64,000 nucleotides of DNA, from contig CBFIJH010000012.1 in assembly GCA_965662895.1 (NCBI GenBank), positions 2,491 through 66,490 of the forward strand, read 5' to 3'. The stretch is from Candidatus Poseidoniaceae archaeon (GTDB lineage: Archaea; Thermoplasmatota; Poseidoniia; Poseidoniales; Poseidoniaceae). Positions 13,636 to 26,601 of the stretch are shown here, piece by piece. The translations under genes were made by a program, and so were the position numbers. Every line of letters starts with the position of its first letter. Position 1 is the stretch's first letter. The notes under the pieces were generated by a model, which was not told the origin of the DNA, ran no database searches, and saw nothing but the letters and a program-made list of their open reading frames with translations.

Positions 13636-14928
13636 ATGGAGGAAACCAAGCCGTTGACCAAAATGTCACTGCTGAAGAGTTTGCTTTCACCTTCAACGTT
13701 TCCTCATTTGCTGATGTTGGCTGCAATCTCTGTGACATTTTTTGTTCTCGCAAGATTGGAAGCAGAAGTGTGGTCCGCGTATGGTTTCATTGCCTTCAGT
13801 CTTGCATACTTGCTTCTCGCACCTCTCTCAAAGAACGAACGCATGGGTGACATCCTTCGCTACAAGAACGAATCCAACGCAACGATGAAACAATCCATCC
13901 CCGCTCGATTGAAAGTCCTCCTATTACCACTCATCATTGGGTTTGTGTTGATTCTGTTTATTTTCCTCGTTTTTGGTGAAAATGGAGTTCTGTCTCAAGT
14001 AGGTTCGTTCTTACCGACCCTCCTCGGAAGTCTGTTTGTTGTCTGGGCAATCGCTCAAGGCCGTTTCTTTGGACTCGCTTCGATGAACGCCATCGTCGTG
14101 CCCGAAGAAGGCGAAGGCAATGCAGAAGGGTACTCTCCTTTGCCTTCGCTCATCATGACATCGACACTTGTGATCGTCATGACTTTCGCAGTAACGGAGG
14201 GTCTTCGATTCTTTTTAGGTAACACATCCTTCAACATCTGGCCTTACCTCTTTTCGTTTGCAGTGTACGGAATTTGCATCTATGTCACATGGGGTCAGCG
14301 AAAGCAAGCATCGATGCATTCTGCCACGCATTCCGTGGCAAGAAAGTGGTTTTGGGCAACCCAATTGTTCATCACTTGGCACGTTTTGAGCATATACCGT
14401 AGTATCGATAGTGCATCGACCGACACGCTGATTTTCATCGAAGAATTGCTCCTGATGATCGTGACCGTCTTCCTCGCAATTTGGGCACTTACAAGCAAAG
14501 GAGAGGGGTCGGAGTCGACACTCTTCACCCGAGAGAACGCACTCTTTTGGGGCGTAGCGTTTGGGTATGCGTATGCTGGAAGTGTCGCAATGATCACGTC
14601 CGTCATGGACGATGTTCGAACCGTTCTCATCGGTGGCCACATCCTCGTTGTTGTAACGGTCATCTGGTCGCAGCGAACCATGCTTGAGGATAAGACACAA
14701 CGCATCAACAGCGATCGAGAAATCGTCGAATCCGTCGGGAAATTACCGATTTATGACGAACCCCCATCCGAACAACAAATCGATGCTGACACCATTTCAG
14801 ATTCATCGCCTCCTGAAGAAGCAAAGAGTTCAGAATCGAGCATCGGCGATCCCGTTGATTGGAATCAAACACCAGAAGCGCTTGGTGATGAAACCGAATG
14901 GGACGATGAAATCGAATTGCTTGATTAA
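13636..14928 (+). CDS. Multi-pass membrane protein with an acidic C-terminal tail
   Basis: About 10 hydrophobic segments and the tail EWDDEIELLD. No family recognised. Confidence 0.75.
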   Translation: MEETKPLTKMSLLKSLLSPSTFPHLLMLAAISVTFFVLARLEAEVWSAYGFIAFSLAYLLLAPLSKNERMGDILRYKNESNATMKQSIPARLKVLLLPLIIGFVLILFIFLVFGENGVLSQVGSFLPTLLGSLFVVWAIAQGRFFGLASMNAIVVPEEGEGNAEGYSPLPSLIMTSTLVIVMTFAVTEGLRFFLGNTSFNIWPYLFSFAVYGICIYVTWGQRKQASMHSATHSVARKWFWATQLFITWHVLSIYRSIDSASTDTLIFIEELLLMIVTVFLAIWALTSKGEGSESTLFTRENALFWGVAFGYAYAGSVAMITSVMDDVRTVLIGGHILVVVTVIWSQRTMLEDKTQRINSDREIVESVGKLPIYDEPPSEQQIDADTISDSSPPEEAKSSESSIGDPVDWNQTPEALGDETEWDDEIELLD

Positions 14929-15833
14929 TCCTCATCGATGCCGGACAGAAGCATCACAATTCGAATGGTTCCTTCCAAATCCGGAGAAACACGTGCCCCG
15001 AGAATGACTTGAGCATCGGCATCGACTGCGGATGTCAACGCTGTTGCAATTTCATCAACTTGGCCGATGGTCAGCCCCATTCCGCCCTCGATTTGAAGCA
15101 GGCATCCCTTCGCTCCTGCGACGTTCATGGGTGCCAAAGGTGCTTTTATTGTAGCTTCGTACAATTCTTGCAATTGGTCATGCCGTCCTGTACCAACCAA
15201 CATTGTCGATGCGCCTTGATGTTGAAGAATCGCTCGCAAATCCATGAGATCAAGATTGATGAGTCCCATCGAAAGAAGGGTGCGAACCAATCCATCGATG
15301 AGGTCCTCAACCCATTCCGAGCCCATATTCCAATCCTTTCCACGATCTCGGGCTTGTCGAGCAAGTCGTTCAAGAGAAAGTTGTACGCAAACGTCGGAGT
15401 GGTGATCAAGTCGTTGGATTTCGGCCTCAGCGATTCGCTTCCTCGCAGGTTGATGCCCAAACGGTAGGGCTGCTATTGAGAGGACTGTTGCCCCGTGAAG
15501 TTTGGCTTGTCGAGCAAATTCATGCGATGCACCTGTTCCTGTACCGCCACCAAGGCCTGCGACAATAATAACCAATTCAGCCTGTTCAAGAAATGGTCGA
15601 GTTCGAGTGCTCAGACTCCGCATTCTTTGTTCGGCTAGGGGGGGTAGAGCAGCACACCCCAACGCATCCAAAGTGTGACCAAGTCGAATGATGTTCGCCC
15701 CGTCGACCTCTGGAAATCGGTCATCTGCATCGAGCATTAGCAACGACGCACCACCGCCGCGTTGGTGAGCCCTGGCTGCCCAAGTACAACCAAGCCCACC
15801 GATTCCGGTGACGAGGATTTGGGTTGACTCCAT
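14925..15833 (-). CDS. Divergent FtsZ/tubulin-family GTPase
   Basis: GIGGLG, signature AGLGGGTGTG, ALPF, LINLDLMDL (T7), VILGA, IRIVMLLSGI. Confidence 0.85.
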   Translation of the reverse strand: MESTQILVTGIGGLGCTWAARAHQRGGGASLLMLDADDRFPEVDGANIIRLGHTLDALGCAALPPLAEQRMRSLSTRTRPFLEQAELVIIVAGLGGGTGTGASHEFARQAKLHGATVLSIAALPFGHQPARKRIAEAEIQRLDHHSDVCVQLSLERLARQARDRGKDWNMGSEWVEDLIDGLVRTLLSMGLINLDLMDLRAILQHQGASTMLVGTGRHDQLQELYEATIKAPLAPMNVAGAKGCLLQIEGGMGLTIGQVDEIATALTSAVDADAQVILGARVSPDLEGTIRIVMLLSGIDED

Positions 15834-16314: not shown

Positions 16315-17127
16315 ATGCTGACAACCTCGTCCACAAAACGCCGCACCATTGTCGTTGCAGTGTTGCTTCTTTTGCTGTTGCCCGGCCTCGCGACATCGCT
16401 CCCTACTGGAATCGGTGGCCAACAGAACGACATCGATGATGTTGCCAAAGAAGGATGTCTTTGCCATAATGCTGCGCCCTCCAACAACGTCCAGGTCATT
16501 TTGGACAGCGTTCCGTACGCCTGGACACCAGGTGAAACCTACGATTTGCAACTGCACATTATCGGTGGACCCGCTGCTGGCGGCCAATACTCTGCTGGAT
16601 TTTCAATGCGCGTCTCAGGCGGTGAACTCGGCGGAATCGGGGTCGACAATTGGGAAGGAGATCTCGAATCCCTCACGCACACCTCCGCATCCGCCGCCGA
16701 ATCCGACCGAATGTGGGATATCACATGGACTGCACCATCCGAAGGAGAGGGAACCGTCACGTTCTGGATCACAGGGAACAGCGTCAACGGAGACGGTGGC
16801 CTCGGCAACGTCATCGAAGACATGTGGAATCAACTCACCTTCGCTCTCGTTGAAGGCGATGAAGACAGTCTTGCAAGAGGGACACGAACCGTCTTTGCGG
16901 GCGACGGCGATGTCGCCCCCCCAGAACCTGAATCACATGGTGCTGATTTGCACCACATGGGTGCAAAGTTGCGTGCCCACTGGCTCGGCCTGTTAGGCTT
17001 CGGAGCCGTCATCATGTGCGTTGTTTTTGCAGGATTGATGCTCCGCTATGGATTCTCAACATCTTACGAAGGACGGAGCAATCAATTGCGACTCCGCTAC
17101 AAACTCATGCGAAGAGGTGATCAATGA
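16315..17127 (+). CDS. Exported Reeler/choice-of-anchor-V-like beta-sandwich protein with a CxCH motif and a C-terminal TM anchor; first gene of the Rieske/cyt b operon
   Basis: Signal peptide, GCLCH, WTPGETYDL, WDITWTAP...VTFWITGNSVNGDG, TM helix WLGLLGFGAVIMCVVFAGLML. Confidence 0.75.
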   Translation: MLTTSSTKRRTIVVAVLLLLLLPGLATSLPTGIGGQQNDIDDVAKEGCLCHNAAPSNNVQVILDSVPYAWTPGETYDLQLHIIGGPAAGGQYSAGFSMRVSGGELGGIGVDNWEGDLESLTHTSASAAESDRMWDITWTAPSEGEGTVTFWITGNSVNGDGGLGNVIEDMWNQLTFALVEGDEDSLARGTRTVFAGDGDVAPPEPESHGADLHHMGAKLRAHWLGLLGFGAVIMCVVFAGLMLRYGFSTSYEGRSNQLRLRYKLMRRGDQ

Positions 17128-17573
17128 TGTACGATGACACAATCAACAATTTGCTCAAGGGCGTTGCAGATGGTTCGATCTCCGTCAAAGACGCACGCAA
17201 TGCGCTCGAAGGCGTTGAGTTAACCGAAGCACAGATGGACGAAGCAATCAATCACGGCGTTCACGATGTTGCCGAATCTGGAACCATTGTAAGCGCAAGC
17301 CTCGCTCCTTCCGGAGGCTCCTATCTCACGATGTTCTTCTTTGCTTGGGGCATCTTCTGGGCATGCTATTGGGCTTTTTCTCTCATCTATGGGCTCGCCA
17401 AGAGCTGGGACCAGCAGCAACTGGCCTTCCACCTTGCTATGACGCTAACAACGCTCATTCTCATGGGTGTCATCTACCTCAAATACATCCTACCAGACAC
17501 CATCATCGTCAAACATTCTCAAAACAAATACGTCCCTGAGCATGCCAAGGATTGGAAGGAGTACAAGTGGTGA
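17124..17573 (+). CDS. Two-TM membrane protein, putative accessory subunit of the Rieske/cyt b complex
   Basis: ATGA-coupled to the upstream gene. Two hydrophobic helices. Confidence 0.7.
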   Translation: MMYDDTINNLLKGVADGSISVKDARNALEGVELTEAQMDEAINHGVHDVAESGTIVSASLAPSGGSYLTMFFFAWGIFWACYWAFSLIYGLAKSWDQQQLAFHLAMTLTTLILMGVIYLKYILPDTIIVKHSQNKYVPEHAKDWKEYKW

Positions 17574-17578
17574 TACCA

Positions 17579-18421
17579 ATGGCGAAAGATTACAACCTCT
17601 TTGTTCCCGAAGTAAAAGACAGCAAGGCGAATGCTGGTGAAACTGTCATCAATCGACGACAATTCCTACGCTATGGTTTCAATACCACTGCAGGTGTTCT
17701 GGCTGCTTCACTCGGGGTGCTTGGCTTTGCAGCAATTCTTCTCCCTCCAGGAGGAGGTTCAGCAGGAGACCTGTCTGTGAAATTCTGGGCCAAAGGGCGA
17801 GAAGACACAGCGTGGTACGGTGCAAAGCACCTCCAAACGATGACAAAAGCAGACTTCGTTGCTGAGGCAGCGAATTCCAACACAGGAACAGCAGGTGCCT
17901 CAGGCGTATGGAACGGTGTTCCAGTTGTTGTCACCTATGTTGAAGATTCAAAATGGCAAGGCTCCCCTAGCGACAACAACAAGGCGCGATTCCAGATGAT
18001 GGAGGGTTACGACGAATCTGGAAAATACATTGGTCACTTTGAAGACATGGTTGCAATGGATGAGCGAATTTACCCCTCTGATGATTTGATCATGGTTTTC
18101 GGGCGATGCACGCACCTTTGCTGCATTCCTGGGTGGCAACTCGTATCCAATTCCTACACCGACGATTCGTGGACTCCTGGAGGAACCGACGATGGAGGAA
18201 CCAAATTGTTCTGCATCTGCCACTCTTCTCGTTTCGATACGACTGCTTTGGAGATGAACACCAATCGTAACCGTTCAAACGGTGCGACGTTTACCTATGC
18301 CGGTGTCCGCAAAGCCGGAGGACCTGCACCTGTAGGACTCCCGCTCATCCCTATCGTACTGAACAATGATGTGGTTGAAGGCATAACCGACTACGTCGAT
18401 TGGTTGACGTATTGTGACTGA
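17579..18421 (+). CDS. Rieske [2Fe-2S] protein with a Tat-type anchor (PetC/QcrA-like)
   Basis: NRRQFLRYG plus a TM helix; box 1 CTHLCC; box 2 CICHSSRFD; GGPAPVGL. Confidence 0.92.
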   Translation: MAKDYNLFVPEVKDSKANAGETVINRRQFLRYGFNTTAGVLAASLGVLGFAAILLPPGGGSAGDLSVKFWAKGREDTAWYGAKHLQTMTKADFVAEAANSNTGTAGASGVWNGVPVVVTYVEDSKWQGSPSDNNKARFQMMEGYDESGKYIGHFEDMVAMDERIYPSDDLIMVFGRCTHLCCIPGWQLVSNSYTDDSWTPGGTDDGGTKLFCICHSSRFDTTALEMNTNRNRSNGATFTYAGVRKAGGPAPVGLPLIPIVLNNDVVEGITDYVDWLTYCD

Positions 18422-18430
18422 GGTGATGAA

Positions 18431-19297
18431 ATGACGACAATGTTCTGGATTCTTTGGTTTTTCATTGCCTTCATTATCGTTCTCGTGGCTTTCACACTCC
18501 GTAAGGAGACTGAGGAAATGCCTCGCCGTGAAATTCTTCGTGCTGTTGAATCAACGGGTGGGATGGGCATCTCGGAACGTGCCTTCTTGTGGGTGTTTTC
18601 GTGGATGGATACGCGATTCCGTATCCAAGACTATTGGAACATGTCCAAAGGAGCATACTACAACATGCACCGTCAGATGCCGCTAACGCACGCTGAAAAG
18701 TACAAACTGCGCATCATTTGGTATTGGTATCCATTGTACTGCTTGGGCGGCATCTCGTTCCTAAGTTTCATCATTCTTGTCTTGACGGGCACAATTCTTG
18801 GCATCTATTACGTTCCAGGGGGCGAAGGTGATCCTTCTCCTGCGTATGCCTCAATGGAATTTATCATGTTGGAATTACCGTTTGGTTACATCATTCGTGC
18901 TGTGCATCATTGGGGAACTCACTTCATGGTTGCATCTGTGTTTTTGCACATGTGCCGGGTATATTTCACGGGCGCTTATCGAAACCCTCGAGAACTGAAC
19001 TGGCTTATTGGTGTCGCATTGATGGCATTAACCATCGTCTTCGGTTACTCCGGCTATCTTCTGCCTTGGGACAGTCTGGCTTACGGTGCAGCGGTTATTG
19101 GAATCAACCTCGCCAATTCCTCACCACTGATTGGAAAGTACATCGCTACGCTCTTGTTCGGTGGTTCATCTCTCACACCTCGAACGGTTACACGGATGTA
19201 CTTCATCCACGTCTTTATCTTACCAGTGATTGTGACAACATTGATCATCATTCACTTGTTTATTGTTTGGGTACAAGGAATCGCGGAGCCGCATTGA
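18431..19297 (+). CDS. petB: Cytochrome b6-type subunit (split cytochrome b, N-terminal part)
   Basis: YCLGGISF; heme ligands in RAVHHW...FLHMCRVY and FIHVF...IIHL; PRELNW, GYLLPWD; C-terminal QGIAEPH. Confidence 0.92.
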   Translation: MTTMFWILWFFIAFIIVLVAFTLRKETEEMPRREILRAVESTGGMGISERAFLWVFSWMDTRFRIQDYWNMSKGAYYNMHRQMPLTHAEKYKLRIIWYWYPLYCLGGISFLSFIILVLTGTILGIYYVPGGEGDPSPAYASMEFIMLELPFGYIIRAVHHWGTHFMVASVFLHMCRVYFTGAYRNPRELNWLIGVALMALTIVFGYSGYLLPWDSLAYGAAVIGINLANSSPLIGKYIATLLFGGSSLTPRTVTRMYFIHVFILPVIVTTLIIIHLFIVWVQGIAEPH

Positions 19298-19311: not shown

Positions 19312-22098
19312 ATGGGATTAATGGAGAATTTAGGACGAGTTGCAACCTCGTACATGGATGAAAAAGCCAAACTGCAAGAAGCAGGAGAAAAGCGCAAGCG
19401 CACTCGGATGGGTCACGGTTTCTGGCCGCACGAGGTGCTACGTGACACCATTCTCTTTGCTTTCATGGCTGCAGTTCTTCTGTTCTACGCGTGGCTCATT
19501 CCACCGCCATTGCACGGTGCAGCTGACCCGTATGCGCAAGCAGGGTTTGTTTTCCCGGACTGGTACGTATTGTTCTCGTACGGATATTTGCGTTGGGGAG
19601 AATATCTTCCTCAATTTACCGTTCCGACCGGATTTATTGGCGATATTGTTGGGCAACCCGTCTTTGCTTGGAACGCTGCATGGTGGGGCGCTGCGCTCAC
19701 AGGTATCCCTGTCGGCATCCTCGCTCTTCCACCTTTCCTCGGCGGACGTGAGAAGCGACCCGTCGAAGACCCGTGGTTTGCTGCAGCAGGTGCAGTTTAC
19801 CTTGCACACGTTTGGTTCATCTCGGTCTTTTCGATCAACATCTTCCTTGAGTTGTACGGGAAAAATCGTTCCGATTATTGCAAACTTGATTCGCACGGCG
19901 ATCTGTTGTGTGGGACTAGGGCCCCATGGATTGCGGAAATTTTCAATGCAGTGCCGTGGATTTTAACCGGCTTGTTGCTGTGGATTGTCATCTATTTCAT
20001 CGGCAGAAATGTGCTGGTTAAAGCATGGGGTGCAGGATTTACTCCGGAACATGGTAAGCGCTTGATTATTGGAGCACTCGTTGTATCGGCTGGTGCCTCT
20101 GTTGCAACCTTTGACACCTACGACAACGGTTTCTGGGAAGCAGGTGGTTTGTTAACCATCAAAGGTCTAACGCACGACTATTACCCTGAACTTGAGGCCA
20201 TGCGTACACAACCTTCGGATGTCCACGTTCATGAAACGAACGAATTCACGGATGACCGTGGATACACCGATGGGGTCGTACCGGCAGCAGCGTGGCTGGA
20301 TTGGCAAATCTTCCAACCTGCCCGAGAGACAATCATTGATTTTAGTGATGCCAACAACCATCAGATTCCTGAGATTGGGGAAAATGCAGCTGGAGAAACC
20401 GTGACCTTTACTGGAGGGGAAGGCTACACCAAAAGTGGAACATTCACGGTCACAGATGACTACACAAGCGAAGCCCTACCAACCGATGTGACCTGCGAAT
20501 ACCGAGCAAGCGAGCGGAAGATCGACGGCGTCAACACTGCAACCATGCTTACAAGCACCATGTCTGTAACGGATAGCAATGGAAAGGTCCTCACATCCTT
20601 TACTGATTGTGCAGGTTCTGAAATCAACCTCGAACCCGGAACATACGGTTACGAATTTACGCTCACAGTATCAGGTGCTCTTGCGCTCAACGATTCCATT
20701 ACAACGGAAACAACCTTTGCCGTACAGACGTACCAACCACTCCTTCTTTGGGACGATAATGCTGGTGCCCATGCTGGCAAAATCGTGAACCTGAGCGACA
20801 CTGCGATGATTGCTGCCTCTTCCGGAACCTACAGCGATGTCACAAACCCATCCTATCACGTCAACCCGAAGGCACTCGATGCCAAGTTGACCTATGCCAT
20901 GTTCATCCCATGTCTCACCTTTGGTGCAGTTGTCATCGTCCTGTTGCGATCGATGGCACGTGGCTACGAATTTGAGATGAACAAGTGCTACGGCTGTGAC
21001 CTCTGTGACGATGCATGTCCTGTGCGATTGTTCAATGGAGGAGACAAACTCAACATCATTTACAATTCGTGGAACAACGAGGACGATGGCGTTCCGCTGT
21101 ATTCGTGTCTGACCTGTACAGCTTGTACCAACGCTTGTCCGCAATTGGTGAACTACGACTCCTACGTCGACATACGTCGCAGCTTGATCGTCGGTGGTCC
21201 AGCAGCAGAAATCCCTCACACAGTACTTCAGGCCGTTCTTGCTGCTGAAGCTGAAGAAGCGTCCAATGACGACTTCATCCCTGTCGAGGAATACCCAATT
21301 TCCTCAAATGTCGGCTACTACCCTGGTTGTGTTGACTACCTTGACCAAGAGATGGTCTTCTCACACGTCAACGAGGGTGAGATGAACCTCGGTGATTCAA
21401 CCACGGCGGCCTTTACGTTGTTCGAAGAAATGGGACACGACGTTTCATACCTCGGCCGTGACTTCCTCAAGTGCTGTGGTCATGACCAGAAGTGGCAAGG
21501 TCTTACTGAAGTCTTTGACAAGCTCAAGGCATACAACCAGAAAAAGATCGAAGCATCCGGAATCGACACACTCGTTTCTTCATGTGCCGAGTGTTTCCGA
21601 ACCTTTGCCCGTGATTACGAATTGGACGGCGTCAAAGTCATGCACACAACAGAATATCTCATCGAGAACGGTTTCGATATGCAACTTTCAACCGATGCAA
21701 CCACAGTGACCTATCACGACCCGTGTCGACTTGGACGACAGATGGGTATCTATGATGAGCCTCGTGAACTGATCAACGCCGTTGAAGGAGTCGATCTTGT
21801 TGAGATGGAACACCATGGTGAGGATGCCATGTGCTGTGGTGTCTCGAGCATGATGTCCTGCAATGAGAACGCCCGAGCACTCCGTGTCGCTCGAATGGAA
21901 GAAATCAAGTCGACAGGAGCCGATACCATGTTGACTTCATGTCCAAAGTGTGTTTCTCACTTTGAGTGTCTCAAGTTCGAAGGTGATGAGCGCTACGAAG
22001 ATATCGAAATCCTCGACGTTGTTTCCTTCCTTGCACGTGAAGTCAACGCAAAGAAAGGCGAGATCTCCGCCTCTTCTCAAACCGAAGTCGAAGCTTGA
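19312..22098 (+). CDS. Cytochrome b6/f subunit IV (PetD-like) fused to an extracellular domain and an HdrD/GlpC-like 2x[4Fe-4S] + 2xCCG module
   Basis: FWPHEVLRD, PPPLHGAADP, PDWY. Then CYGCDLCDDACP, CLTCTACTNACP, YYPGC..KCCG..SCAEC and TYHDPC..MCCG..SCPKC. Confidence 0.9.
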   Translation: MGLMENLGRVATSYMDEKAKLQEAGEKRKRTRMGHGFWPHEVLRDTILFAFMAAVLLFYAWLIPPPLHGAADPYAQAGFVFPDWYVLFSYGYLRWGEYLPQFTVPTGFIGDIVGQPVFAWNAAWWGAALTGIPVGILALPPFLGGREKRPVEDPWFAAAGAVYLAHVWFISVFSINIFLELYGKNRSDYCKLDSHGDLLCGTRAPWIAEIFNAVPWILTGLLLWIVIYFIGRNVLVKAWGAGFTPEHGKRLIIGALVVSAGASVATFDTYDNGFWEAGGLLTIKGLTHDYYPELEAMRTQPSDVHVHETNEFTDDRGYTDGVVPAAAWLDWQIFQPARETIIDFSDANNHQIPEIGENAAGETVTFTGGEGYTKSGTFTVTDDYTSEALPTDVTCEYRASERKIDGVNTATMLTSTMSVTDSNGKVLTSFTDCAGSEINLEPGTYGYEFTLTVSGALALNDSITTETTFAVQTYQPLLLWDDNAGAHAGKIVNLSDTAMIAASSGTYSDVTNPSYHVNPKALDAKLTYAMFIPCLTFGAVVIVLLRSMARGYEFEMNKCYGCDLCDDACPVRLFNGGDKLNIIYNSWNNEDDGVPLYSCLTCTACTNACPQLVNYDSYVDIRRSLIVGGPAAEIPHTVLQAVLAAEAEEASNDDFIPVEEYPISSNVGYYPGCVDYLDQEMVFSHVNEGEMNLGDSTTAAFTLFEEMGHDVSYLGRDFLKCCGHDQKWQGLTEVFDKLKAYNQKKIEASGIDTLVSSCAECFRTFARDYELDGVKVMHTTEYLIENGFDMQLSTDATTVTYHDPCRLGRQMGIYDEPRELINAVEGVDLVEMEHHGEDAMCCGVSSMMSCNENARALRVARMEEIKSTGADTMLTSCPKCVSHFECLKFEGDERYEDIEILDVVSFLAREVNAKKGEISASSQTEVEA

Positions 22099-22100
22099 AC

Positions 22101-22385
22101 CTACTCTTGAGGTGGAGCGTCATCTTCCATCCCGACGATTTCATAGTTTGATGGAAAGAGTGCGATGAGGACACCTGCGATAAGACTGAACAGCCCCCAA
22201 GCGAATTCCTGTTGAACAAAAAGGAGTTCAAGTGCAATCACACAAAGCACAAGCCCTCCAATGTTGGAAGTCCATACAAGTGTTTTGAACGTGCCGAGCG
22301 ATACACCGGTCGTTCCTTCTTTTCGATAGGGTCCAAATTCTCCACCGAATCGTTGTGCAGTTGGTTGTTTTCCTTTTTTTGACAT
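22101..22385 (-). CDS. Small two-TM membrane protein
   Basis: Two hydrophobic segments; GGTGA SD upstream. Last gene of the minus-strand run. Confidence 0.65.
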   Translation of the reverse strand: MSKKGKQPTAQRFGGEFGPYRKEGTTGVSLGTFKTLVWTSNIGGLVLCVIALELLFVQQEFAWGLFSLIAGVLIALFPSNYEIVGMEDDAPPQE

Positions 22386-22394
22386 TCAATCACC

Positions 22395-22727
22395 TCATCG
22401 GTCAATCATACTGATTGCATCGGTTGGACAAGCGAGAACACAAAGGCGGCACCCAGTGCACGCATCTCGAACAATCTTGGCCTTCTGGTTGCTTTCAACG
22501 TTGATGAGAGGGCTTCGCATCGCAACCTTGTACATTTCAATCGCATCATCGTCACAGACAATGGTGCACTGATCGCAGCCAATGCACAACTCTTCTTTGA
22601 CGAAGGCAACCGCTGATTCCCCTCCTTTCAGGGATGCGTGTTGAACACCCCGTTGACGATTCAGACTGGTACGAATGCGTTTCGCCTCTTCTTCGCGGCG
22701 ACGCTTCAACTCATCCGAGGACGTCAT
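22395..22727 (-). CDS. 2x[4Fe-4S] ferredoxin-like protein with a charged N-terminal helix
   Basis: CIGCDQCTIVCD and CTGCRLCVLACP. Confidence 0.9.
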   Translation of the reverse strand: MTSSDELKRRREEEAKRIRTSLNRQRGVQHASLKGGESAVAFVKEELCIGCDQCTIVCDDDAIEMYKVAMRSPLINVESNQKAKIVRDACTGCRLCVLACPTDAISMIDR

Positions 22728-23370
22728 GGTTCACCACAGACATGGGTTGGCCTTCAAACTTAGCAACGCTCAAGTTAACAAGTAAATCTCCAAAACAATA
22801 GAATGCACCTACCAGAAGCGGTGGATTCCACGCAGTCAATCCAGTGTAAGGAACTGCAGCAGCCCACTCCCAATTTCCAAGATAGGTGCCCCACAATTCC
22901 ATCAATAAGGCAAGCCAAACCATTGATGCATAAAGGCGGGGTTCAGGCCCCCATTGCGTGAATCCAAGCGTCAAAAGGACAAGGAGAACCGCAGACGTGT
23001 CTGTCCCTTTGACTGCGCCATAAACAACCAGGGGAACCAACAGTAGGATCAAGAACATCGGTGATCCTTCAGGTATGTGCTTTGCGATACGACGCCCAAG
23101 ATCAAAGAGAAAGTAATGTCCAACAGGGACAAACAATGGCATGATTCCCCGTTGATATTCATAAATGAGCCAAACCTCACTAAAGAACAACTCCATCGGT
23201 GTTGCAAACGCCAAGACTGCAATCATTTCAATTCGTTCTTTTCGATTGGTTCTGAAAAAAATGTAAGAAAACACACCGAGGCACCAGATGTTCACAGGCC
23301 ATTCTGCGTATTCCGCTGATACGAGAAGACCAATCGCAATCGTCAGGACATACAGGGCCTCACGACGCAT
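22711..23370 (-). CDS. Multi-pass membrane protein of unknown function
   Basis: About 7 TM segments, with repeated ELF...W.Y / ELWGT...W half-motifs. Confidence 0.75.
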   Translation of the reverse strand: MRREALYVLTIAIGLLVSAEYAEWPVNIWCLGVFSYIFFRTNRKERIEMIAVLAFATPMELFFSEVWLIYEYQRGIMPLFVPVGHYFLFDLGRRIAKHIPEGSPMFLILLLVPLVVYGAVKGTDTSAVLLVLLTLGFTQWGPEPRLYASMVWLALLMELWGTYLGNWEWAAAVPYTGLTAWNPPLLVGAFYCFGDLLVNLSVAKFEGQPMSVVNHDVLG

Positions 23371-23405: not shown

Positions 23406-24611
23406 TCAGTCGTTGGGCAATTCTGCAGCCTCTAGCCCCATGGCAAGCATGGACAATTCCGATAACAGTGCATGCCAACTGTGGGCATGCGTCATAAATG
23501 TGGAATCTTCTTCTGCTGTAACGAAACGAGCACTCGGTGAATTAAGGTTCCCAATTTCGTCCTTTTTTGGATTTATTCTGTAAAACCAAGAAGATGCATC
23601 CCCATCAATGAGGTAGACAACAGGTTCGACCGGATCCCCACTTTCAGTCTTCATCAAAGTTGGAACGCCTTCCTGAATTAAGAAATCCTCCGTTTCTGAA
23701 CCTCCTTTTCCGTACATGAGTTTCTTCATCTTACGATTTGAAAGGTTCAACAGTTGTTCACCTGATGTTACCGTCATAATCCCCAAGCCGTACGTCCCAC
23801 GGTTGTTCTTGACGTATGCAACGGGGTCGCGGTCGATACCCAATGCGTCATAGCGTTGGGAAAGTTTCGCCAAAAAAGTATCAACATCGCTTGCGAGCTG
23901 AATCCGGCAACCTTCTTTCTCCAGGCACTTTTCTTCAGAAACAAACGAGTCGCAAAGGAGATGCCAAGGATCGATTCCAATGATTTCACTTATTTCTTCA
24001 ACCAACGGCCGCAAGAAATCGAAATGCTGTGATTTCTTACGTTGGTACCAACCCATCTGCGGATTTGGTAAAACGCTCTTCGTTGAAAGCCCTTCCAACC
24101 CACCATCAGTAAGATCATTGTTGAGTAAAATAAAATCGGGTTGTTGACCTTGAACGAGGAGAACGTCCTCCAAGAGTTCAACATGATCCAACGGTAGTGG
24201 CCCGTGTATCCCATTCAGTGCATCAAAACCATCCAAGTCGGGATTTCCTATCGTGCATCGATAACCAGCGCGCTCGACCAACGTACAAAGCGTTCGTAGA
24301 TTCTCAACATATCCTTGATTCCGGGTATGTGACTCCGGATAGATGTGCACCCATTTGCAACCGGGTTGATGACGCTCAATGTGATCCGTCATTCGTTCGA
24401 CCAAGTGAGGGAAATCTGCTTCTGCAGTGTTGTTGAATCCTGCAGGAAATTGGTTTGCGTCCACGACTGCTATTTTCCATCCAGCGTCACGAATGTCAAC
24501 GCTTCCATAAATCGGTACATCGATTTCAGAGCGTTTCGATTTCATCCAAGCAACAATTTCATCATGCTTTTGGGTGAGGACATCGGTTAAGTTATGGACC
24601 AAGGACATCAA
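23406..24611 (-). CDS. gshA: Glutamate--cysteine ligase (GshA, PF08886-type)
   Basis: PIYGSVDIRDAGWKIAVVDANQFPAGFNN, PESHTRN, LLNNDLTDG, VKNNRGTYGLGI, IQEGV, EPVVYLI. Confidence 0.85.
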   Translation of the reverse strand: MMSLVHNLTDVLTQKHDEIVAWMKSKRSEIDVPIYGSVDIRDAGWKIAVVDANQFPAGFNNTAEADFPHLVERMTDHIERHQPGCKWVHIYPESHTRNQGYVENLRTLCTLVERAGYRCTIGNPDLDGFDALNGIHGPLPLDHVELLEDVLLVQGQQPDFILLNNDLTDGGLEGLSTKSVLPNPQMGWYQRKKSQHFDFLRPLVEEISEIIGIDPWHLLCDSFVSEEKCLEKEGCRIQLASDVDTFLAKLSQRYDALGIDRDPVAYVKNNRGTYGLGIMTVTSGEQLLNLSNRKMKKLMYGKGGSETEDFLIQEGVPTLMKTESGDPVEPVVYLIDGDASSWFYRINPKKDEIGNLNSPSARFVTAEEDSTFMTHAHSWHALLSELSMLAMGLEAAELPND

Positions 24612-26386
24612 ATCACCTCTGCAAGCAAGTCATCAATCGACCGATTTATCCGGATACCATCGTATTCGATAAGATGGAGCGATTCAAAGAGACCTAACCC
24701 CAGTGCAATTTCAGGTTGTCGCCGAAGCAATGGTTCACAGAAGTTCCATCGAGATGCGACTTCTTCGATTTGTGCTGAGTATTCGTCCAGACAACGAGTG
24801 AGCAGTGTTGGAGAAGTCGCAGTTCCTGCAGGGAGTTTTTTGCGAGAAACAACGCTCTCTGGTAGCGAAGTCTGACTTGCTGCCATTCGAAGTGCCTTTT
24901 TCTCCAAACCATCTGTTGGCAATCGCTGATTCATCGGTAGATGAAGGGCGTGGCGAAAGTGAGAGCGACCCAAAAAAGGAACACGAACTTCGAGAGAATG
25001 AGCCATTGAGTGACGATCAACCAATCGGAGTTGAAAATTGCTCAACTGACCGTGATCAAGTTCAAACTGCAAGGTTTCTTGTAAGGAATTCAAGTGTGCT
25101 TTAGGCGTATGGTTTTCAGTCCACCATCGCCCATCGTCGAGAGCAAGTTGCCCATTCTCAAACTGTCGTGCAAATGGATGATTCAACATCTCAATCCGTG
25201 CTTCAAGCTCGTGTTTGTGGGCTGCAAGATCTGTATACCGTGGATAGCCGGCGTGAATTTCGTCCGCACCTTGACCACATAACCCAACCCGAACAGATTG
25301 AGCCATGGTCTTGAACAGCGGCTGGAAGAACAGAACAGATACATCCAAGTCTTCACCATGCCAAGAAAGTGAGGGAAGATGTTTTGCGAATGCGTCCGCT
25401 TCCATGATGTGTTGATGATGATGAAGATCCAGTTCAGATGCGACAAGTTCTGCTGCCATCCAATCAGGATTTTCTTCACTTTCAGCAACCGTCCAGCATT
25501 CAGGTATTGGGCGATTGTATCGCTGAGCAGCATCGTTTGCAACGGCAGCAACAAGAGACGAATCAAGTCCACCGGAAAGAACGATTCCAACGGGCACATC
25601 TGCCATCAATCTCTGGCCGACGCTGTCCACAAACCCATCGAGAAGTTTCTGAGCACCATGAAGTTCATCGTAATCATTGAAGGGAGCAATCCGTGGATTC
25701 GAGAAACGATGGGAATCAATCAAAACTGCCTGTTCGCCAACAAGTGACCAAACCTCAACTGTACCCGGTCGTACCTGGTGAACATCGAGAAAGAGTGTGG
25801 TTGCATCAAGTGAATATTCCCAGACCAGACGAGCCATTAGTGCGTGCTCGTCCAATTGTGGGTAAAAGTCAGAATGCGCACGCAAGGCTTTGACTTCGCT
25901 TGAGAAAACCAGCGAAGAGCCAATCTTTGAGCGAACCAAGGGCTTGATTCCCATCTCATCTCGTGCCAATACCAAATGGTTTTGCTTTGCATCCCATAAC
26001 GCAAAAGCAAACATTCCGTCCAATTGACGGATCCATTCAGCGTGATCACGTGCGCTGCATGAAGAATTTGTGGATGTGGTCTTCTCATGCAGTGCGAGGA
26101 TGGTCTCACTGTCGCCAAACGTTGTCCAAGGATAGTCGGTTAAAGATTTTCGAATCGATTCAAAATTGTAAATTTCTCCGTTCGCAATGAGAACGTTTCC
26201 TTCCTGTGATTGAATCGGTTGAGGACTTCCTTCAAGATCGACAATGGCTAGACGTGCATGTCCAAGGCAGACGGATGCATCACTCCAAATTCCAGAACCG
26301 TCTGGTCCTCGGTGGTGTTGCAGTTGAATCATATTTTTGACGATGCTTGGCTCAGGTGCACCAAGCATGCCTGATATGCCACACAT
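24608..26386 (-). CDS. asnB: Asparagine synthetase B-family glutamine amidotransferase
   Basis: MCGI N-terminus (start 26386), HRGPDG, NGEIYN, LSGGLDSS, GQGADEIHAGY, LEVRVPFL. Confidence 0.9.
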   Translation of the reverse strand: MCGISGMLGAPEPSIVKNMIQLQHHRGPDGSGIWSDASVCLGHARLAIVDLEGSPQPIQSQEGNVLIANGEIYNFESIRKSLTDYPWTTFGDSETILALHEKTTSTNSSCSARDHAEWIRQLDGMFAFALWDAKQNHLVLARDEMGIKPLVRSKIGSSLVFSSEVKALRAHSDFYPQLDEHALMARLVWEYSLDATTLFLDVHQVRPGTVEVWSLVGEQAVLIDSHRFSNPRIAPFNDYDELHGAQKLLDGFVDSVGQRLMADVPVGIVLSGGLDSSLVAAVANDAAQRYNRPIPECWTVAESEENPDWMAAELVASELDLHHHQHIMEADAFAKHLPSLSWHGEDLDVSVLFFQPLFKTMAQSVRVGLCGQGADEIHAGYPRYTDLAAHKHELEARIEMLNHPFARQFENGQLALDDGRWWTENHTPKAHLNSLQETLQFELDHGQLSNFQLRLVDRHSMAHSLEVRVPFLGRSHFRHALHLPMNQRLPTDGLEKKALRMAASQTSLPESVVSRKKLPAGTATSPTLLTRCLDEYSAQIEEVASRWNFCEPLLRRQPEIALGLGLFESLHLIEYDGIRINRSIDDLLAEVI

Positions 26387-26601
26387 ACAACGACAACCCG
26401 GCTCTCGCCTATATACCGTTGCTTTTGATTGAATCACCAAAGTGGATACCTGAATGCCGTTACTGCAAGCAGGATGACTGCAATTCCGAAGAATGTGTAG
26501 TAAATTGATTGAGGTGGCTCTTTGGAATCATTGTCGCCGTACATGGGTACCAACGGTCGCTCCTAGAGCAACCGATTCTAAAATATGGCGGCGAAAACGT
26601 C

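Follow-up and report, generated by a model that had tools for sequence, protein, structure and literature searches.

A single gene in the DNA stretch analysed here (the window: 64,000 nt of contig CBFIJH010000012.1, positions 2,491 to 66,490, from Candidatus Poseidoniaceae archaeon assembly GCA_965662895.1) joins a part resembling subunit IV of the cytochrome b6f complex to an iron–sulfur (Fe-S) module resembling the heterodisulfide reductase subunit HdrD. The gene lies at positions 19312..22098 of the window on the forward strand, starts with ATG and encodes 928 amino acids (aa). From the N- to the C-terminus, the product starts with the subunit IV-like part, which bears the PDWY motif; two extra helices lead to an acidic, Thr-rich beta-sandwich of roughly 255 aa, and a sixth helix is followed by the HdrD-like module with two [4Fe-4S] motifs and two CCG domains. 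The best explanation of these features, as read from sequence, is that the fusion gene represents the subunit IV equivalent of an unusual Rieske/cytochrome b6 complex. The module most probably forms an Fe-S electron port of this complex on the cytoplasmic (n) side, whichever way the electrons run. The more specific reading, in which electrons of ferredoxin enter quinone through the fused Fe-S wire, is given a probability of roughly 0.45.

The four-part layout of the open reading frame had been proposed in a first-pass annotation of the window, and it was borne out by Pfam, a motif scan and the matches of a profile built from 24 members of the fusion family (alignment A1), seven of which are short forms described below. 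The N-terminal part (19312..19860, +) corresponds to helices E, F and G of subunit IV or of the C-terminal half of cytochrome b, as indicated by profile matches and model helices. Taken as a single sequence, this part has no Pfam match at E ≤ 0.01, and a phmmer comparison with cytochrome b and subunit IV reached an E-value of only 0.15. The 24-member profile matched the C-terminal half of Rhodobacter cytochrome b (chain residues 231–359) with an E-value of 1.5e-9 and subunit IV of the b6f complex with an E-value of 3.3e-7, and the homology to PetD and to the C-terminal half of cytochrome b is established by profile. The Qo motif PDWY (residues 82–85; 19555..19566, +) has PEWY as its counterpart in the alignment with cytochrome b and subunit IV. 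It represents the PxWY loop following helix E and is invariant in all 24 aligned sequences.

The Fe-S module begins with an HdrC-like ferredoxin domain (20974..21144, +) recognised by the Pfam families Fer4_8/9/10, the first cysteine of which is located 10 residues past the sixth helix. The 4Fe-4S dicluster domain covers residues 555–611 (Fer4_8, E = 2.8e-7), and the motif scan located the ferredoxin motif CxxCxxCxxxCP twice, at C559..CP570 and C599..CP610. Two CCG domains follow (PF02754, E = 3.2e-23, with the best stretch at residues 799–884). The first of them (21328..21594, +) contains C673, C721, C722, C758 and C761, with the CC pair of the Hdr type and the sequence CAEC; the second (21724..21951, +), which holds the best Pfam stretch, contains C805, C841, C842, C877 and C880. 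The 24-member profile matches HdrC with an E-value of 5.7e-11 and HdrB with an E-value of 2.5e-8. All eight cysteines of the ferredoxin domain and eight of the ten CCG cysteines are invariant in the 24 sequences, and the other two are present in at least 90% of them; three of the seven short-form relatives each lack one cysteine of the first CCG domain (KCVGHD, KCTGHD and CAEGY). The order of two CxxCxxCxxxCP motifs followed by two CCG motifs (C..CC..CxxC) is that of HdrD. Among curated families, the best match of the fusion is the thiol:fumarate reductase subunit TfrB, with an E-value of 1.9e-31 and a score below the cut-off.

The fusion is kept across the order Poseidoniales and is backed by sequencing reads. 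Its frame is intact in 40 of the 41 related genomes, among them all 18 of high quality, and all 11 genera are represented; the sole genome without the fusion is 66% complete. Database proteins matching the fusion at E ≤ 0.001 number 652. The full-length matches listed are 915–942 aa long, belong to Poseidoniaceae, Thalassarchaeaceae and metagenome-assembled genomes labelled 'Euryarchaeota', and are named only 'Fe-S oxidoreductase', 'heterodisulfide reductase subunit D' or '4Fe-4S dicluster domain-containing protein'. Of the sampled fusion words, half or more were found in each of 20 sequencing runs from eight studies, and both domain junctions are bridged by contigs of four runs from four studies, with no joints reported. 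None of the 24 runs listed for fusion words is an RNA run, from which nothing can be inferred on expression. An assembly artefact is ruled out by the 40 genomes and by the junction-bridging contigs.

The families are designated here by numbers, f1 being the family of the window and f2 and f3 the other two families of the order, with f3 as the sister family. Some of the matches in the sister family (genomes G029, G030 and G035–G040, with frames of 930–940 aa) were flagged with one in-frame stop (TAA, TAG or TGA). The flagged stops are probably located at match ends or in the poorly aligned insert.

The cytoplasmic location of the Fe-S/CCG module is predicted from the topology of the chain. Six hydrophobic segments were found by hydropathy at residues of about 45–65, 121–145, 154–182, 207–232, 250–268 and 526–548, and the full-length AlphaFold2 model contains helices at about 39–62, 122–137, 154–183, 206–242, 245–265 and 520–548. 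The first-pass annotation had counted three helices plus one and had missed two of the six; with all six, the N- and the C-terminus both still come out inside. Because six helices follow an N-terminus located inside, as in subunit IV, the C-terminal module would be returned to the cytoplasm. The predicted inner segments carry 18 lysine and arginine residues versus five in the short outer loops, and the conserved cysteine pairs that do not belong to clusters (C190/C200 and C395/C433) occur in predicted outer segments only. Relatives without the insert have helices E, F and G and one more helix, directly followed by the Fe-S module. The even number of helices, the inner loops rich in lysine and arginine, the outer cysteine pairs and the four-helix short relatives all agree with the cytoplasmic placement made at first pass.

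The gene directly upstream of the fusion (18431..19297, +) encodes a split cytochrome b6-type protein of 288 aa with an N-terminal extension (PF00033, E = 2e-42). The protein matches PDB chain 1vf5_A with an E-value of 1.5e-43, and the heme-ligand histidines are aligned. Helix A contains the CxGG motif: 'lyclgg' of the window protein is aligned with 'fyclgg' at residues 33–38 of 1vf5_A, and Cys104 in YCLGG (codon at 18740..18742, +) is the equivalent of Cys35 of cytochrome b6. In cytochrome b6 of cyanobacteria and plastids, this stretch reads FYCLGG. According to the available text of PMC4122944 and PMC5600118, Cys35 of the CxGG motif in cytochrome b6 binds heme ci. All 10 cytochrome b6 genes located beside an Hdr-linked subunit IV encode this cysteine, and in all seven located beside a stand-alone subunit IV, threonine, serine or alanine takes its place; one locus beyond these 10 + 7 could not be assessed. 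A maximum-likelihood tree of 16 cytochrome b6 sequences separates the CxGG-bearing, Hdr-linked group from the stand-alone group by one branch with a support of 100/100. By these sequence comparisons, the Hdr-linked cytochrome b6 can be regarded as a distinct subfamily, which keeps both the motif and the module over long branches. The assumption that the heme-ci motif and the Hdr module had come together repeatedly and independently was dropped in view of the single split in the tree.

The fusion is the fifth gene of a co-directional cluster consisting of genes for a choice-of-anchor V protein, a small protein, a Rieske protein, cytochrome b6 and the fusion itself. The operon with Rieske and cytochrome b6, already recognised in the first-pass annotation, is upheld by the genes of the window and by all seven loci from the two other families, where the fusion directly follows cytochrome b6 and a Rieske match is present. 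The position after a split cytochrome b6 in a Rieske cluster is that of subunit IV. The probable Rieske iron–sulfur protein (17552..18421, +; 289 aa) features the twin-arginine translocation motif RRQFLRY and the boxes CTHLCC and CICHSS. It matches TIGR01416 with an E-value of 3.8e-10 and 40 bits, below the cut-off of 97.4, and neither a Pfam match nor, at E ≤ 0.01 by phmmer, a PDB match was found for it. The position of this gene is conserved.

Linked to the cluster is a gene for an RnfB-like ferredoxin of 110 aa with two [4Fe-4S] motifs and a basic N-terminal tail (22395..22727, −; Fer4_21, E = 3.3e-14). Its match to TIGR01944 (rnfB; E = 3.2e-13, 49.7 bits) is below the cut-off of 68.7, and the protein is accordingly termed RnfB-like only; RnfACDEG are missing from the group according to PMC6336850. 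It is paired with a gene for a small protein of 94 aa with two hydrophobic segments (22101..22385, −). In 7 of 7 loci of f2 and f3, the five cluster genes are followed by the 110-aa ferredoxin and the 94-aa protein on the same strand. The pair is inverted and adjacent to the fusion both in the window and in 11 loci belonging to its genus; it is situated 0.8 to 2.4 kb away in three other f1 loci and 14 kb away in genome G075. A comparison of the placement of the pair in the window (22101–23370, −) and in loci L013–L019 and L051 points to a local rearrangement that may have moved the pair after the families split. From its linkage, the 110-aa ferredoxin is the probable cytoplasmic partner of the fusion.

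Relatives of the fusion were found elsewhere in the phylum. A search of 1.84 billion representatives revealed shorter fusions of 543–789 aa without the insert. In a profile survey of 201 genomes of the phylum, single-frame fusions of full span outside the order were present in f23 (5 of 5 genomes), f25 (4 of 4) and f31 (1 of 1); the fourth f25 fusion is cut at a contig end, its match spanning profile positions 7–466. Family f4 has a split form (2 of 2), in which one gene encodes subunit IV and the ferredoxin domain and the following gene the CCG part. The same survey found a stand-alone subunit IV of 241–307 aa in nine genomes from at least five other families. In all six loci with a short or split form, this form directly follows cytochrome b6; two of the loci have a Rieske match. 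Since these relatives elsewhere lack them, the insert and the two extra helices are specific to the order.

The genes located behind the short and split forms encode electron carriers. In f23, an MvhD/FlpD protein (PF02662, E = 1.8e-29) is encoded there together with proteins that bind FAD/NAD(P) and contain ferredoxin domains. The fusion of f25 is followed by a gene whose product unites ferredoxin and FlpD domains, and in f31 and f4 (loci L038 and L040), polyferredoxins of 273 and 321 aa, related to the RnfB-like ferredoxin, are found. A domain search of the window's genome did not find the MvhD/FlpD domain. In every lineage examined, a soluble Fe-S or flavin carrier is thus encoded beside the module, which is the strongest contextual argument for cytoplasmic electron exchange. 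The built-in cytoplasmic electron port suggested at first pass gains partial support from this context, which comprises the RnfB-like ferredoxin, the HdrA/MvhD-like genes of the relatives and the heme-ci motif CxGG.

The fusion was compared with known systems that share some of its parts. With PetD and the C-terminal half of cytochrome b, it has in common helices E–G, the PxWY loop and the position of the gene after those for a split four-helix cytochrome b6 and a Rieske protein; unlike PetD, it is extended by three helices, an outer beta-sandwich and a cytoplasmic Fe-S module of 380 aa. With HdrD of the HdrDE complex, it shares two [4Fe-4S] motifs followed by two complete CCG motifs in the same domain order. 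HdrD is located at the cytoplasmic face of a two-heme membrane cytochrome b, and a similar placement is predicted for the module of the fusion. In contrast to HdrD, the module is covalently fused, and in the membrane it is paired with subunit IV and a cytochrome b6 of the Rieske type where HdrD has the NarI-like HdrE; the partners found in the cluster are Rieske and cytochrome b6. The gene content also does not correspond to the reduction of the heterodisulfide of coenzymes M and B (CoM-S-S-CoB) in a methanogen or methanotroph, as McrA (PF02249) was not found in the 92% complete window genome, where the controls responded. This agrees with the non-methanogenic host assumed at first pass. The closest stand-alone HdrD-like proteins of the phylum had been considered as HdrDs of methanogens, and this was dropped, as McrA is present in none of the five genomes concerned.

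The best solved relative of the fusion is mycobacterial EtfD (9ojn_A), with an E-value of 5.5e-23 for the single sequence and 2.6e-39 for the profile. In both proteins an HdrD-like module is tethered by a helix to the membrane part, which in EtfD is a heme-b domain, and EtfD acts as a wire from the cytosol to quinone in an aerobe, as stated in the available text of PMC13083937. The same text assigns the CT and CxHC (CPHC) signatures of EtfD to a linear [3Fe-4S] cluster and a cluster completed by histidine, unlike the fusion with its KCCGHD and CAEC. EtfD also has a five-helix HdrE-like domain, in place of which the fusion has a subunit IV domain; neither the CT/CxHC signature nor a five-helix heme-b domain of the HdrE/NarI type was found in the fusion. 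The protein would function both as a wire of the HdrD/EtfD type and as a subunit IV. Because both the membrane partner of HdrDE and the signatures of EtfD are missing, the fusion can be placed outside these two systems.

More distant parallels are known for the whole complex. In Angelarchaeales, which belong to the same phylum, hdrD-like and rnfB-like genes are located beside cytochrome b at the complex III locus (PMC9038741); these are proximal genes, unlike the fusion described here, and a subunit IV fusion, CxGG or Poseidoniales are not mentioned in the available part of that paper. Anammox Rieske/cytochrome b complexes and the bacterial 'PDWF-FeS' fusions resemble the present complex in joining a bc-type core to a cytoplasmic Fe-S/flavin oxidoreductase (PMC5600118 and PMC4122944, as far as available), and some bacterial fusions include 4Fe-4S and MvhD domains, as do the genes behind the short archaeal fusions. 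They differ in being bacterial and, in the same available texts, in the absence of a reported CCG/HdrD module; the PDWF-FeS clusters also have no Rieske gene, which is present here.

In the mechanism that we propose, the fusion would supply the Qo-site PDWY loop and helices E–G on the membrane side, and its HdrD-like cytoplasmic part would assemble a chain of four clusters, namely two cubane [4Fe-4S] clusters and two CCG-bound ones. The 2-oxoacid:ferredoxin oxidoreductase, for which an alpha-type gene is present in the window genome, would load the linked RnfB-like ferredoxin. The reduced ferredoxin would dock at the distal end of the chain, and its electrons would travel along all four clusters, reach heme ci/heme bH of cytochrome b6 and be delivered to quinone at the Qi site, provided that the proximal cluster lies within electron-transfer distance of heme ci/bH. 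The quinol formed at Qi could then be oxidised at Qo via the Rieske protein, and a single enzyme would act both as ferredoxin:quinone reductase and as quinol oxidase. That the fused module links heme ci/bH and the Qi site to a donor in the cytoplasm is suggested by analogy with the wire of EtfD, where, according to the available text of PMC13083937, two CCG-bound and two cubane clusters with gaps of 7–9 Å connect the cytosol to a membrane heme b and menaquinone. Entry of ferredoxin electrons has also been proposed for the complex III locus of Angelarchaeales (PMC9038741, in the part available). NuoF was not found in the 92% complete window genome.

Several points weigh against the entry of electrons from ferredoxin. 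Both CCG motifs are complete and of the Hdr type (CC and CxxC), which agrees with a catalytic function no less than with a passive wire. An archaeal 11-subunit complex I could already oxidise ferredoxin, an assumption made in the available text of PMC9038741. The ferredoxin gene is convergent with the fusion or distant from it in the family of the window, unlike f2 and f3, and in 8 of 11 loci of other f1 genera it does not occur within 1.5 kb; in the two of these that were followed up, it lies 2.4 and 14 kb away. The full-length AlphaFold2 model is of moderate quality, with a predicted local distance difference test score (pLDDT) of 69.8 and a predicted template modelling score (pTM) of 0.45, and was built without cytochrome b6. 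Finally, because the tree has a single split, the association of the heme-ci motif with the Hdr link counts as one event and not as 17. A wider version of the mechanism describes a hard-wired ferredoxin:quinone reductase form of the b6f-type complex, in which heme ci is fed at Qi and the HdrA/MvhD-like set of the relatives, mounted on the same adaptor, would join Qo bifurcation and flavin bifurcation; this is put forward tentatively, as doubtful in its full extent.

The architecture and the linkage evidence apply equally to a wire running in the reversed direction. Bifurcation of quinol at Qo would then send one electron through the Rieske protein to oxygen and the other through heme bL, heme bH/ci and the Fe-S chain to a cytoplasmic acceptor, which could be ferredoxin, or NAD(P)+ via the HdrA-like proteins of the relatives, so that quinol would yield a low-potential reductant and the electron would not be recycled at Qi. 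A precedent is found in proposals for the Rieske/cytochrome b complexes of anammox bacteria, which have NAD(P)/Fe-S oxidoreductase subunits on the cytoplasmic side (PMC5600118, as far as available), and the HdrA-like FAD/NAD(P) proteins and MvhD domains encoded directly behind the fusion in f23 and f25 would suit such a role. Electrons would have to travel to the negative membrane side and, from there, uphill to ferredoxin, though, and an aerobic heterotroph with 2-oxoacid:ferredoxin oxidoreductase already produces reduced ferredoxin. Moreover, the window genome has no MvhD/FlpD domain by the domain search, and its operon has no adjoining HdrA-like gene. We consider the reversed wire rather unlikely.

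A lower probability is assigned to catalysis by the CCG clusters themselves, as in HdrB and HdrD. The module would then carry out the disulfide/thiol chemistry raised as an option at first pass, reducing or forming a disulfide of a protein thiol or a low-molecular-weight one, for example bis-gamma-glutamylcystine, with the b-heme chain as the source or sink of electrons. The complete, Hdr-like CCG motifs (CC and CxxC), which differ from the CT and CxHC of EtfD, and the best curated match to TfrB (below the cut-off, as given above) are consistent with this, and a gene for glutamate-cysteine ligase lies 1.3 kb from the fusion and is still nearby in several loci. The ligase is present in 21 of 21 genomes of f1 and in 5 of 14 of f3, but in none of the 12 genomes of f23, f25, f31 and f4, all of which are Hdr-linked; its distribution does not track the fusion, and the gamma-glutamylcysteine link was rejected. 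The loss of one cysteine of the first CCG domain in three of the seven short-form relatives and the lack of any candidate disulfide carrier gene conserved in the cluster also speak against catalysis, and CoM-S-S-CoB is unlikely as a substrate because McrA was not found. On balance, thiol/disulfide catalysis appears improbable.

Far less credible is the function of an EtfD-type acceptor for electron-transferring flavoprotein (ETF), through which electrons of beta-oxidation and amino-acid catabolism would enter Qi. EtfD is the closest solved relative of the fusion, and EtfA and EtfB are encoded in the window genome. The same genome encodes a separate EtfD orthologue of 685 aa, a far better match to 9ojn_A (E = 6.7e-99, over the membrane and the soluble parts), with an N-terminal five-helix heme-b domain of the HdrE/NarI type and with CSGD and CPHC where EtfD carries its signatures, which makes this function of the fusion unlikely; the fusion itself has no EtfD signatures, and the etf genes are located on another contig. 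As for the last alternative, a cofactor-less remnant, a merely structural module or an artefact of assembly or gene calling, no point in its support was found, and it can be practically dismissed in view of the intact frame (40 of 41 genomes, 18 of 18 high-quality ones), the junctions bridged in four runs of four studies and the cluster-binding cysteines, which are kept across sequences only 34–41% identical to the window protein.

With ferredoxin entry remaining the preferred reading, the finding can be set against what has been described. According to the available text of PMC6336850, descriptions of complex III of Poseidoniales to date comprise only cytochrome b and Rieske without canonical bc1 genes, and the group contains an orphan 'RnfB' and has no RnfACDEG. 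The 110-aa ferredoxin is probably this orphan 'RnfB' of Marine Group II reported by Tully (2019; PMC6336850). The archaeal short-cytochrome-b subfamily N was surveyed in PMC5600118 without CxGG, and the CxGG-bearing groups listed in PMC4122944 do not include archaea, both as far as these sources were available. In the literature searched, which did not extend to supplementary drawings of loci, no description was found of a covalent subunit IV–HdrD fusion, its spread across the order or its outer domain, nor of a CxGG cytochrome b6 partner or HdrA/MvhD-bearing relatives. The hdrD-like/rnfB-like neighbourhood, mentioned once for Angelarchaeales, and bacterial Rieske/cytochrome b complexes with cytoplasmic modules are already known from the parts of the sources available. 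The shorter fusions in three families, the split form in a fourth, the heme-ci/Hdr split, the linked ferredoxin and the separate EtfD orthologue are new.

Loose ends are tied in this way into one predicted seven-gene complex, in which the orphan ferredoxin receives a place. In the plankton, the Poseidoniales (Marine Group II) rank among the most abundant archaea. Whether ferredoxin delivers electrons at the n-side heme of photosynthetic b6f complexes has long been debated; if the wire supplies heme ci, the fusion would offer a natural, fused model of this reaction, and its covalently attached donor module could be studied by structural and spectroscopic means. An archaeal split cytochrome b6 with CxGG also bears on the question of whether a three-heme cytochrome b is ancestral.

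The remaining parts of the fusion protein are those specific to the order. The first addition (19861..20115, +) consists of an outer loop with C190 and C200, modelled by AlphaFold2 as a beta hairpin at residues 189–201, and of the two extra helices (206–242 and 245–265); the loop and both helices are missing from the seven short forms in alignment A1. It is followed by an acidic, Thr-rich beta-sandwich of about 255 aa, predicted to be extracellular, with conserved C395 and C433 (20116..20886, +), as judged from composition and a domain model. The insert (residues 270–525) contains 35 threonines among 256 residues, and 39 aspartates and glutamates versus 12 lysines and arginines. The domain model has a pLDDT of 77.4 and a pTM of 0.70, and its fold gave only generic jelly-roll/GOLD/PPC-like matches at background level: the best Foldseek match has an E-value of 1.9e-5 with a TM-score of 0.26 on the query, all matches being ≤ 0.28, and the best Z with VIA is 8.2. 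Identity of the insert among the families of the order is 32–38%. The sixth helix (20887..20955, +), which brings the chain back to the cytoplasm, equals the fourth and last helix of the short forms. At locus L016 (8320–10350, G027:C9), the insert measures 677 aa versus the usual length of about 260–285 aa, and the open frame is 1339 aa long. Parts of the window insert match it twice (query 1–476 and 375–915), which suggests a duplicated insert domain in this genome.

The first gene of the cluster (16315..17127, +) encodes a choice-of-anchor V/Reeler-like protein of 270 aa with a signal peptide, a C-terminal helix and a CLCH motif (NCBIfam choice_anch_V, E = 3.3e-26, above the cut-off). The nearest Atlas cluster is 'putative Reelin domain-containing protein' (score 0.98, taken as a lead only). 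The gene is syntenic in all seven loci from the other families of the order and also occurs in L040 and in L043, a lineage that has a stand-alone subunit IV, yet keeps the choice-of-anchor V gene beside the Rieske/b6 genes. The protein is possibly the outer electron acceptor of Rieske, replacing cytochrome c1/f. The second gene (17124..17573, +), also syntenic in 7 of 7 loci, encodes a small protein of 149 aa with two hydrophobic segments and a weak match to DUF7318 (E = 0.0067).

The EtfD orthologue of the window genome is located at G000:C3:106999–109056 (+) and matches EtfD of M. smegmatis over its 685 aa with the E-value of 6.7e-99. The genes for EtfA and EtfB are found at G000:C8:65202–66921 (−), on a contig separate from that of the orthologue. 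Their presence suggests a predicted ETF:quinone link of the mycobacterial type in these archaea.

The glutamate-cysteine ligase gene at 23406–24611 (−) matches TIGR02049 with an E-value of 2.6e-82, just below the cut-off. It is adjoined by a gene for a 610-aa protein (24608–26440, −), which by eye has the look of an amidotransferase of the asparagine-synthase type; the two together could produce a thiol of low molecular weight. Upstream of the cluster, in the window (14925–15833, −) and in 7 of 7 loci of the other families, lies an open reading frame with glycine-rich motifs of the GGGTGTG type, which by eye resembles the tubulin/FtsZ family.

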